64,000 nt of DNA, taken from the sequence record MT932213.1; one strand, given 5' to 3'. Below the pieces are notes generated by a model. The model ran no database searches. It was not told the DNA's origin and was given only the letters and a program-made list of their open reading frames with translations. The stretch's first letter is position 1. Every line of letters starts with the position of its first letter. Made by a program: the position numbers and the translations under genes. Source of the stretch: Escherichia phage VEc74. Positions 5,153 to 61,949 of the stretch are shown piece after piece.

Positions 5153-5572
5153 TTATTCCTTAAAATGTGCTTTCAACATCTGATACAAGGACCATGCCTG
5201 TTCATTATTTTCAATAGTAACTTTCATTACCGGGAATTCTGTGAAATCTTCTATTTGTTCTTGCTCTTCCTGCTCTTGTTCTTCAGCAGCCTGATATGGA
5301 TTTTCCACTTCATCAAAGAACCCAGCTTCGTTAGTAGAGAGCCAGATAAAGTTTTCGTCAAGAATATCACCGTGTTTTGCATATCCAATTGTGCCAGTAG
5401 ATGTCACAATTTTAGTAGGACGCCCAAGATAATCAGCATCTAAAATTTTAAAAGGTTCCATACCTAAACGTCGTGCGTAGATTCCGTTATCAGTATGGTC
5501 TTTAATAAAATTTTCTTGAGCTTGTTTATTTTTGAATTGATACCATTTATTAACTTCAAATTTAATAGCCAT
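5153..5572 (-). CDS. hypothetical acidic protein (goF position)
   Basis: 139-aa ORF with an [10 protein letters not shown] acidic tract. Confidence 0.45.
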
Positions 5573-5787
5573 TAATAAATTTCCTTCCAGTAAGTTGTGC
5601 CATCTTCAGTAATTTCACGAAATACACCGTAAATTGGTTGTTTATCACCAACCTTTTCATACACATAAACCGAAGTCAAGTGAGTAAACTTAATGGTGTG
5701 TTCCTTTTGAACTACTACCAAATCTGGATCAAATAATACATCTTCAAATTCGTCATTAGTGCAGTTCTGAACAATTTTACGTTTCAT
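5572..5787 (-). CDS. hypothetical protein (cef position, 71 aa)
   Basis: 71-aa ORF with ATGA-type overlap to the upstream gene. Confidence 0.4.
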
Positions 5788-5800
5788 TACAATTTCCTCA

Positions 5801-6070
5801 TTAATTGAACAGTGGAGCGATGCGTTTCAGAAGAGTAGCAGTACCTTTGGCAAATTTTACATCATGAAAAACAGTTTCTTCTTCTGTAACAACACGAACT
5901 TTAATGTTTTCACAATCCCAATTTTTACGAACAATCTTCAAAAGCTCCAGTAAATCTTTACATTCAGCAATATCGATAACACATCCACGAGAATCTTCCA
6001 TTATCGCACGATAACCGTAAGCCATACCATAATCGTTGAAAGATTGCTCGATGATAATTAAGTTTTCCAT
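5801..6070 (-). CDS. hypothetical protein
   Basis: ORF starting MENLIII at the ATG; the tracked upstream extension uses a TTG. Confidence 0.45.
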   Translation of the reverse strand: MENLIIIEQSFNDYGMAYGYRAIMEDSRGCVIDIAECKDLLELLKIVRKNWDCENIKVRVVTEEETVFHDVKFAKGTATLLKRIAPLFN

Positions 6071-6091
6071 TTTATTCTCCAAGTTGTTTTC

Positions 6092-6140
6092 TGCATCAGT
6101 AGTTGATATTGATATAGTACCATAATCAACTACTGATGCA
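6092..6140. repeat. perfect 16-bp inverted repeat (stem-loop) with a 17-nt loop
   Basis: TGCATCAGTAGTTGAT ... ATCAACTACTGATGCA; the loop carries a promoter -10-like TGGTACTATA. Confidence 0.7.
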
Positions 6141-6168
6141 TATAGTTTTATGAAAAAAATTTTAAACT

Positions 6169-6657
6169 TTATGCATAGAGAGCATTGCTATAGTGTTTAA
6201 TCCAGCTTTCAGGAATGACTTTATATGTTCCTAAAAATACCACATTGTACAGCTTAACGCCATCTTCTACCCATTGATCAGTAATGTATCCACACATAGC
6301 GCGAGTATAAACAGCCTTTCCATCATCTTTGATAAATTTAAATTCACAAGGAGCAATGAACTTGATAGCTTGACCGAGTTTCCACTTAAAGTCTACACCT
6401 ACATGCGAAGTATCAATCGTTTCAATTCCTTTAGCAGGAACAGCTTTCAAAAACGCAGGCTCAAGAAATTTCCATCGAACATAACCAAACTGAGGTTTAG
6501 ACTTTCCATCTTTAGGAATGATACGCACTTTTACTTCAGAATCTTCATCTTTAACACCATGTTTAAGCTGAATGCTTACAATTTCAACCAATTTTCCTGC
6601 TGCCTTAGAACGGGATTTATCAGATACACGAGCAATTTCACCGATATTAATATTCAT
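6169..6657 (-). CDS. motB: MotB-like protein
   Basis: 162-aa ORF at the motB position (T4 MotB is 162 aa). Confidence 0.5.
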   Translation of the reverse strand: MNINIGEIARVSDKSRSKAAGKLVEIVSIQLKHGVKDEDSEVKVRIIPKDGKSKPQFGYVRWKFLEPAFLKAVPAKGIETIDTSHVGVDFKWKLGQAIKFIAPCEFKFIKDDGKAVYTRAMCGYITDQWVEDGVKLYNVVFLGTYKVIPESWIKHYSNALYA

Positions 6658-42703: not shown

Positions 42704-42889
42704 TTATAGCGTAATCCATTCTCGTACTGTCTGAGTTACTACACGTTCTCGAAGCTCAACCAGTTCAACGGTAGGAACTGCATAATACCAGTCAGAATGA
42801 TAAGAACCTGAGCGAGATTCATTTACAGCCACATGTACATTATGTTTTGGACTAAAAATAAACACACTGACGATATTGGCATTTACCAT
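42704..42889 (-). CDS. hypothetical protein
   Basis: 61-aa ORF. Confidence 0.4.
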   Translation of the reverse strand: MVNANIVSVFIFSPKHNVHVAVNESRSGSYHSDWYYAVPTVELVELRERVVTQTVREWITL

Positions 42890-43036
42890 CTTGCACCCAG
42901 TCTTCTATTTCGATAGGTTTAAGATAATCGGAAAAATCGAAATCATAGTTTTCTGAAAATGCATCGTGGTCTTCGATGATTTCGCTCAGAACTGCATCAA
43001 CATCTAATTTATTTTCAATAGTCATTTTTTCACCAA

Positions 43037-43929: not shown

Positions 43930-44230
43930 TTTCTTCTCGGTCAAATCGGTGTTTACAATGGCGACATTTATAACGAAGATTATTAGTCTGCCAATGGACC
44001 AATTGCACCTGTTCAGTTCCACATTCAGGGCAATTAGGAACGTTTTTAGAAGCGCGTTCGCGGCGTTCAACCATGACCATTACAGAATCCCAATTAATAG
44101 GGCTGCTATAATCATCACAACCATGAATCTTTCCACGCATTTCCAAATCGTCTTCTTCACCAGCCATAATAATTTTAATTAGACTAGAATTACTTGAAGC
44201 TGCAATGTCTTCTAATAGACGCTTTTTCAT
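43916..44230 (-). CDS. zinc-ribbon protein
   Basis: 104-aa ORF with CPEC...CRHC. Confidence 0.45.
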
Positions 44231-60273: not shown

Positions 60274-60309
60274 TTTATTCTCTCTAAATTTGGGCCATTC
60301 CATGGCGCA

Positions 60310-60341
60310 TGAATTGTCCATTTCTGTATTTACCCATTACC
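60310..60341. repeat. 32-bp direct repeat, copy 1 (flanks the ip cassette)
   Basis: TGAATTGTCCaTTTCTgTATTTACCCATTACC; 30 of 32 identical to the copy at 60946-60977. Confidence 0.6.
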
Positions 60342-60414
60342 GCACTTGGGCTCGACCTTATTACAGGTTGGCGGGAATCCCTCACAGAATCATGAGGTCC
60401 AGGTTGTTCCCATG

Positions 60415-60888
60415 TTATTTGAACGATTTAACGTACTGAATAGAACCTTTACTATTCACAAAGGCAATTTTACCATTTTTGTTATACATAGTAGCAGTAC
60501 GTTGATAGCCATAAGTTTGCTTACCAGATTGATAACCAACTAATGCAAAATTATCTTCACCCATTTTATTCTGTTTAGCGCGAATGCGTTCATGACCATG
60601 TGCCATAAGAACCTTAGCATCACCAGTTGCAATGGATCGACGAGTTTTTTCATCTTCAACTGTATTAACAAAGTCGTCAAATGAATCAAATTTAGCATGA
60701 GATTTATTATACAGTTTTCCATCTACTGCATAATTATATCCTTGTACATCCATCTCAACTTCTGTACCATCATCTAATACAGCAGTAATTTTCTGTCCTT
60801 TTTTAAATTTCAAAAGATCAGTAAAAGATTCAGCAATAATTTGAGAATTAATAGCTGCCTCAGTAATAAATTCTTGATATGTTTTCAT
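60415..60888 (-). CDS. internal protein with capsid targeting sequence (IPII-like)
   Basis: 157-aa ORF starting MKTYQEFITE, the CTS shared by T4 internal proteins. Confidence 0.6.
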   Translation of the reverse strand: MKTYQEFITEAAINSQIIAESFTDLLKFKKGQKITAVLDDGTEVEMDVQGYNYAVDGKLYNKSHAKFDSFDDFVNTVEDEKTRRSIATGDAKVLMAHGHERIRAKQNKMGEDNFALVGYQSGKQTYGYQRTATMYNKNGKIAFVNSKGSIQYVKSFK

Positions 60889-60945
60889 GTATATCCTTTA
60901 AATGTAAATAGTTTTATTCTTTAAGTTTTGGACAATTCATGCGTG

Positions 60946-60977
60946 TGAATTGTCCGTTTCTATATTTACCCATTACC
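60946..60977. repeat. 32-bp direct repeat, copy 2, preceded by a 10-bp stem hairpin
   Basis: TGAATTGTCCgTTTCTaTATTTACCCATTACC with GGACAATTCA/TGAATTGTCC hairpin at 60930-60955. Confidence 0.6.
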
Positions 60978-60996
60978 AGGTTCGAACTCGGCTTTA

Positions 60997-61561
60997 TTAA
61001 GAATTACCGCGGGCTGCATTAGCAACGGCGTAAGCGTACTGAACATTAGCGTCTTTAAACGTACCTTTAGAGGTATCTAGTTCTGCCTTAAAGCCACCTT
61101 TAGTCATAACCTCGGCGAATTCTTTACGGAAAGCCATTGCATCAAGACTTCTCCATGATGATTTGTGCTTGGCGAATTCAAGACCAGCGTAGTTGACAGC
61201 CTTAGCTAATTTATTATCAATAACCCATTTACCAGCTTTAGGCACAAACACCGGGCCTTTCTGTTTAGAGAACAGTTTTAAATTCCAGCGACGAAGGTCA
61301 CCGTCGGCTTTAACAAAAGCTGCGTCTAAGTTACTAGCAACAACATCCTGAATATGGCCAAATTTAAGCCCATCAACTTCAATATTTAGATCGGTACGCC
61401 AGCGAAGTCCTTCCCAAGCGAAAGCTTTAAAGTCGGAAGCCTTTGTAGCTAAGTACCGTTCAATAGGAGCCGTTTCCCGATCGATAGGTCCACTCATCTT
61501 TATTAATGCCTTTGGCCTTTTCCACAGAAGCTTCAGCGATAAATTCTTTATACGTTTTCAT
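60997..61561 (-). pseudogene. internal protein III-like gene with its CTS leader in a different reading frame
   Basis: 33-codon ORF MKTYKEFIAEASVEKAKGINKDEWTYRSGNGSY (61460-61561) overlaps the 166-aa body ORF (60997-61497) in another frame; the junction lies at a G-run. Confidence 0.45.
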
Positions 61562-61577
61562 GTGTTTCCTTTAATTT

Positions 61578-61895
61578 TTATTCTTTAGGGAAGTTTTTAG
61601 AATATGCATCATAAAGCTTATTTCCAATACGGCGGAAAACTCTAGCCGCAAAACGATTTTCTGGGTTTTTAATCATGATTTGCATCATATAAGTACCCGC
61701 GTCAGAAAGAGCTTCTTCATAGTACCCATTAATTTCTTTAAGAGTCCTACGTTTACCACCAGGACCATCAACAGTGATTTTCCATTTACCTGTAGAAGTG
61801 CGACTTGGCGGCTCAACTTGTTCAATCCAGATATAACCACCTTCTACACGTTGTCCTGCAGCAGATTCTGCAATAAATTCTTGATAGGTTTTCAT
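61578..61895 (-). CDS. internal protein with capsid targeting sequence
   Basis: 105-aa ORF starting MKTYQEFIAE. Confidence 0.6.
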   Translation of the reverse strand: MKTYQEFIAESAAGQRVEGGYIWIEQVEPPSRTSTGKWKITVDGPGGKRRTLKEINGYYEEALSDAGTYMMQIMIKNPENRFAARVFRRIGNKLYDAYSKNFPKE

Positions 61896-61949
61896 GTGTT
61901 TCCTTTAAATATTTTAATTAGTAATTTGTCTCTTCAAGTAACTGTGAAT

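Follow-up and report, generated by a model that had tools for sequence, protein, structure and literature searches.

The ipIII gene in the window, by which we mean the whole stretch of 64,000 nucleotides that was analysed, is split into two reading frames by a 17-bp deletion, and we consider it likely that this is a genuine and recent null allele of ipIII in a T2-like Tequatrovirus. The window covers the initial 64 kb of such a phage. Its coordinate 1 aligns with coordinate 1 of T2, at the rIIA end of the record, its identity with T2 is about 97% over window positions 40-64 kb, and no near-identical genome is found among 50,697 phage records. A frameshift pseudogene, a sequencing or assembly error at a homopolymer and a programmed frameshift had been put forward in the original prediction, and the first of these is the best of the three.

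The two reading frames and the lesion between them

The features of the gene, from its ribosome-binding site to the end of the protein body, are as follows.

61567..61572, minus strand: Shine-Dalgarno sequence AAAGGA of ipIII, 5 nt 5' of the ATG at 61561; anti-SD duplex -5.6 kcal/mol
61460..61561, minus strand: truncated 5' ORF of ipIII (the leader), with its ATG at 61561, 33 codons plus TGA (61462-61460); product MKTYKEFIAEASVEKAKGINKDEWTYRSGNGSY
ATG at 61497 to TAA at 60999-60997, minus strand: 166-codon body ORF, in the +1 frame relative to the leader
61471..61497, minus strand: fortuitous 5' extension of the body ORF (MSGPIDRET), which is out-of-frame leader sequence
61467..61475, minus strand: deletion junction (the junction itself at 61467-61471), from the alignment with T4, ECML-134 and ECO07P2
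60997..61470, minus strand: ipIII body proper, approximately residues 37-193 of intact IPIII (about 157 codons), with no further stops or indels

Both of the ORFs that had been predicted, a 33-codon leader ending at 61460 and a 166-aa body beginning at 61497 in another frame, could be located on the minus strand, and the suggestion that they are IPIII-like holds. Together they tile PHROG 5341 ('internal virion protein', 192 positions), with the leader matching positions 1-31 (E=1.2e-14) and the body positions 32-192, end to end. The body is in tblastn 90% identical to the IpIII of T4 and 98% identical to that of ECML-134, and the leader is 100% identical to residues 1-31 of the latter. A Pfam scan of the body gave no match, using a Pfam set that was without PF26861 (Phage_T4_IpIII).

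Codons 1-31 of the leader are the authentic N-terminus of IPIII, and its last two codons (SY) and the stop are out-of-frame sequence from beyond the deletion. The first ten codons (61561-61532, minus strand) encode the capsid-targeting sequence (CTS) MKTYKEFIAE, 10 residues of which the final Glu is the gp21 cleavage site; it is identical to that of ECML-134 and differs by one residue from MKTYQEFIAE of T4. The AAAGGA motif is found at the same spacing in all three internal protein (IP) cassettes of the locus. No stop interrupts the body frame upstream as far as 61557, and the leader and body frames overlap over 61460-61557. There is no continuous ORF that holds both the CTS and the mature protein, as the stop at 61460 ends the leader and the body follows in the +1 frame. 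Judged from its sequence, the locus is a disrupted ipIII allele and not a functional member of the T4 IpIII / Ip3 family. Any product of the body would, as had been foreseen, be without a packaging signal, since the CTS sits in the leader ORF only.

When the locus is aligned with the intact ipIII genes of T4, ECML-134 and ECO07P2, a single gap of 17 columns appears in the window, GGAAACG-GCTTTGACCCTAAAACA-GCTCC, where GCTTTGACCCTAAAACA is the 17 bp of the intact alleles that is missing. As 17 is not a multiple of three, the frame is split. The alignment with other T-even phages, which had been proposed as a check, thus bears out the difference in frame, and the place that had been pointed out, the CGGG/GGAAAC run near 61470-61480, was also right. 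The cause was not: a single-base or homopolymer indel is ruled out by the 17-bp gap, and a sequencing error at a homopolymer is unlikely because the lesion is a loss of 17 bp between imperfect direct repeats of 8 bp. The two 8-mers, AAACGGCT and AAACAGCT, start exactly 17 bp apart in T4, ECML-134 and ECO07P2, and one hybrid copy, AAACGGCT, is kept in the window at 61475-61468. The perfect homology at the breakpoint is only 3 bp, and the breakpoint is ambiguous within GCT (61470-68).

Since the deleted length equals the spacing of the repeats and one repeat is retained, the deletion pattern suggests slipped-strand mispairing or micro-homology recombination. Deletions between short direct repeats (slipped mispairing) are said to have been described in T4 by Singer and Westlye in 1988, e.g. 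in rII, and they are similar in that the deleted length is that of the repeat spacing and one copy is kept. The repeats of the window differ from these in being imperfect (7 of 8), and here we infer the mechanism and do not observe it.

Recoding and independent translation of the body

It is very hard to believe that a programmed recoding event joins the leader and the body, whether by a +1 frameshift or by a hop of peptidyl-tRNA-Tyr from UAU to UAC over the UGA. A bypass element is known from phages of the T4 type, in gene 60, and matching Tyr codons for take-off and landing, UAU (61465-63) and UAC (61455-53, in the body frame), flank the UGA of the leader at a distance of 10 nt. The UAU..UAC sequence is however ancestral and present in the intact alleles, and the pair can therefore not have evolved for hopping. 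At the junction there is no +1 site of the prfB type (CUU UGA) and no SD-like stimulator, and no stimulatory RNA structure beyond that of shuffled controls was found in a region of 121 nt (MFE -25.5 kcal/mol, with a mean of -27.5 for the shuffled sequences and z = +0.57). Neither is there any relative with two ORFs among those sampled (see below), and the programmed frameshift that had been proposed is thus unsupported. Any recoding event here would be fortuitous and of low efficiency. The likeness to the bypass of T4 gene 60, and to the -1 frameshifts of tail chaperones, lies in two overlapping ORFs that jointly encode one protein family, but the window is without a slippery site to the correct frame, a stimulatory structure or a conserved arrangement.

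The leader does contain a canonical -1 slippery heptamer, G_GGA_AAC, at window positions 61472-61478 (minus strand), in register with the leader frame and also found in the intact ipIII of ECML-134. It was tried as a -1 frameshift site and rejected, as it leads to the wrong frame: the body lies in the +1 frame, whereas the -1 frame is closed after 7 codons by a TAG at 61451-49. This match to the heptamer pattern is probably coincidental.

A second alternative is that the body, without its CTS, is made at a low level, from the ATG at 61497 or by re-initiation after the leader stop, so that an injected protein has become an intracellular anti-restriction protein. The body ORF is fully intact, and a plasmid-borne IPIII without CTS complements an ipIII-deleted T4 on ECOR17 (PMC9391042), which are the points in its favour. 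The intactness of the ORF is on the other hand explained by the recency of the deletion, and the target is a restriction endonuclease that acts on incoming DNA, so that an inhibitor made after infection would presumably come too late. The start site is no better. The internal ATG had been predicted to have a weak RBS, and weak it is: an AAGG lies approximately 10-11 nt upstream, badly spaced, with an anti-SD duplex of -3.2 kcal/mol compared to -5.6 at three real IP starts. As a real start, however, the ATG does not stand up, since it is an out-of-frame reading of GAT GAG TGG that is shared by all intact alleles aligned, an accident, and it lies inside the translated leader ORF. No other ATG, GTG or TTG occurs in the body frame for 83 codons, and the remaining body codons appear to be without a credible start of their own. 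We find such translation of the body quite improbable.

The broader suggestion that the gene is not simply dead, either by low translation of the CTS-less body or by a fortuitous hop or +1 shift that lets some shortened IPIII be packaged, is likewise given little credence by us. If it were true, a low-level body or a re-joined IPIII would be a natural case of an injected anti-restriction protein that has been re-routed.

Age of the allele and quality of the sequence

A query of 70 aa that spans the junction, taken from the intact protein of ECML-134, has matches in 259 phage records, all with at least 80% query coverage, and in 40 rows sampled across this ranking the match is each time one in-frame piece covering residues 1-70. 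The two-ORF arrangement, whose presence in related phages had been named in the original prediction as something that would speak against it, is absent from these 40 of the 259 ipIII-bearing records. At the nucleotide level, a megablast of 50,697 phage records with 91 bp of the window across the junction gave no gapless match. The full-length matches come in two pieces that span 108 bp (91 + 17), and that of ECO07P2 is one gapped piece of 105 bp with a gap of 14 nt, as ECO07P2 has a 3-bp gap of its own. None of IMG/VR, the JGI metagenomes and the GTDB genomes contains the exact junction 23-mer, and a relaxed 20-mer has one unrelated chance match in IMG/VR and none in the metagenomes. The exact products of both ORFs are not on record among 153 billion gene positions, but the genome of this phage is probably not in that collection (a fragment of gene 49.2, described below, is also absent), and their absence therefore tells us little on the correctness of the sequence.

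The allele shows no decay apart from the deletion. Compared in the ancestral frame, leader and body together differ from ipIII of ECML-134 by 15 synonymous and no non-synonymous codon differences, and from that of ECO07P2 by 16 synonymous and one non-synonymous. As there is no non-synonymous change relative to ECML-134, and no second stop or indel, we conclude that ipIII was under purifying selection until the deletion took place, and that the lesion is very recent, or an artefact.

The possibility of an artefact of assembly or sequencing, or of a minority variant that was fixed in the consensus, has to be taken seriously, although we regard it as unlikely. The real phage would then have an intact ipIII of 193 aa. 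The allele is unique in comparison with the 259 ipIII-bearing records and with all other collections searched, and a body entirely without decay is just as much to be expected of an artefact. In order to judge the quality of the sequence, ORFs of T2, PST and ECML-134 were translated and compared with the window by tblastn. Only two frame breaks in the 64 kb are specific to the window, the one in ipIII and one in gene 49.2. The latter, an extra A in an A4 run, is a change of a kind that a sequencing error could produce, and this second unique break also counts on the side of an artefact.

Gene 49.2 (window 42704-43025, minus strand) is split into ORFs of 57 and 61 aa by the additional A, at 42854. 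In T2 it is a single ORF of 106 aa, and every one of the top-ranked matches listed, including T4, is one base shorter than the window.

Against an artefact stands the lesion itself, since a clean loss of 17 bp between direct repeats is a classic product of replication slippage and is atypical for errors of base-calling or at homopolymers. The large essential genes of the window are intact, as are the other genes that were compared. The window and T2 differ by approximately 20 further indels that break a frame, and at nearly all of them PST and ECML-134, where they can be aligned, agree with the window. As they match the window without gaps, the deviant in nearly every case is T2. Published T-even genomes moreover routinely have a small number of split non-essential genes, T2 being an example with vs.8, nrdC.2 and mobD.1 annotated as fragments. 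Because the window is otherwise clean, and because such split genes are normal in T-even phages, a real mutation is favoured over poor assembly.

The T2 sequence used (MH751506) is short by exactly 2 bp at approximately ten sites in non-essential genes from nrdC.2 to vs.8, which correspond to the following positions of the window.

44107, 44181, 44223, 48338, 52093, 52335, 53156, 58803, 59929, 60176: 2-bp gaps in T2

At all of these except 44107 at least one of PST and ECML-134 is gapless and agrees with the window; at 44107 there is no alignment of PST, and that of ECML-134 has gaps. Several of the sites fall in genes that are annotated as N- and C-terminal fragments in T2, and the recurrence of deletions of 2 bp is odd.

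The internal protein locus and the loss of ipIII

The gene lies in the hypervariable IP locus adjoining the lysozyme gene e, a neighbourhood that is also found in T4, PST, ECML-134 and ECO07P2. On the minus strand the order in the window is e, a 105-aa IP, ipIII, ip4 and vs.8.

62478-61984, minus strand: e, lysozyme
61578..61895, minus strand: upstream neighbour, a 105-aa CTS-bearing internal protein cassette (MKTYQEFIAE...), PHROG 3966
60929..60956, no strand assigned: 12-bp stem-loop in the spacer between ipIII and ip4, directly 3' of ipIII
60415..60888, minus strand: downstream neighbour, a 157-aa CTS-bearing Ip4 / DUF7412 cassette (Pfam DUF7412, E=6e-96)
60321-59734, minus strand: vs.8

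The downstream cassette of 157 aa is annotated as ip4 in T2 and as ipIV in PST. The order of the three cassettes is also found in ECO07P2, there with an intact ipIII, and T2 has e-ip4-vs.8 and lacks ipIII. The exact 105-aa IP is common in T4-like genomes, where the 157-aa IP (ip4) comes directly next to it. Among genomes with an identical vs.8, the content between e and vs.8 ranges from no IP cassette to denV plus ipIII, and in many natural relatives an IP is missing altogether from this place. The ipIII of T4 has the same N-terminal CTS and type of RBS and the same position downstream of e, but it adjoins ipII, whereas that of the window lies between two other IP cassettes and has its CTS and body separated by the 17-bp deletion after codon 31.

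All three tandem cassettes open with a conserved block of 55 nt, containing the AAAGGA RBS and the CTS codons, which is 76-85% identical between them (60852-60906, 61525-61579 and 61859-61913). The block is a likely substrate for the shuffling of cassettes among relatives, which have from zero to three of them between e and vs.8. A direct repeat of 59 nt (78% identical) flanks the ip4 cassette at window positions 60305-60363 and 60941-60999. Its copy on the vs.8 side holds the RBS of vs.8 and the start ATG GAC AAT TCA, and the copy just past the ipIII stop has the same sequence with the ATG changed to ACG. The pair looks like the footprint of an insertion of ip4 into an older ipIII-vs.8 junction. 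A run of T4-like phage genes, e, the 105-aa IP, ip4, vs.8, vs.7 and vs.6, abuts bacterial LysE and LysR-type genes in a contig of 489 kb (GCA_025336695.1, JAODFN010000001.1, locus positions 5253-6318), in which phage and host DNA have probably been assembled into a chimera.

What the deletion would mean for the phage can be judged from work on T4. IPIII begins with the capsid-targeting sequence, 10 residues that are needed for incorporation into the prohead core and are removed by gp21 (PMC9026906). The gene is non-essential, and IPIII- mutants have approximately half the normal rate of head assembly and a burst of about 40% of normal (PMC9026906). In three of five experimentally evolved T4 lines ipIII was lost, at the cost of infection of ECOR17, and IPIII supplied from a plasmid restored this infection even without the CTS (PMC9391042). 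Ip3 of T4 is a specific inhibitor of GmrS1/GmrSD2, a type IV restriction system of ECOR17, and T2 and T6, which are without ip3, are restricted by it (PMC12373910).

In the reading that we prefer, that of a genuine null allele, slippage or recombination between AAACGGCT and AAACAGCT would have removed the 17 bp, with a change of frame beyond codon 31. Ribosomes that start at the usual RBS and ATG would then make a peptide of 33 aa, the 10-aa CTS and 23 further residues, which would end at the TGA and be cut to 23 aa if it is packaged. IPIII would be neither packaged nor injected, and the protection against type IV restriction enzymes of the ECOR17 type, GmrS1/GmrSD2 (GmrSD), would be lost. As ipIII is non-essential and T2 lacks it, the phage should still grow on laboratory hosts, though its burst may be smaller. 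It would in this respect resemble the laboratory ipIII nulls of T4, i.e. the amber IPIII- and IP0 of Black, the toxIN-evolved ipIII deletions and T4 Δip2Δip3, in which packaged IPIII is lost and the phage is viable, and the shared phenotypes to be expected are a reduced burst and restriction by the GmrSD of ECOR17. Those are amber mutations, engineered deletions or large deletions, whereas the window would have a spontaneous micro-homology deletion of 17 bp in a T2-like genome.

As such a null allele it is an ordinary knockout of a dispensable gene, with no recoding device and no new mechanism. We recommend that 60997-61561 is annotated as a disrupted ipIII pseudogene, and not as a 166-aa 'internal protein' with a small ORF beside it. 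The predicted sensitivity to GmrSD of the ECOR17 type may be relevant to the host range of the phage and to its use in therapy. Loss of ipIII is common in nature, and what is new here is only the route, which would be a natural example of how T-even phages readily lose accessory anti-defence genes through micro-homology deletions.
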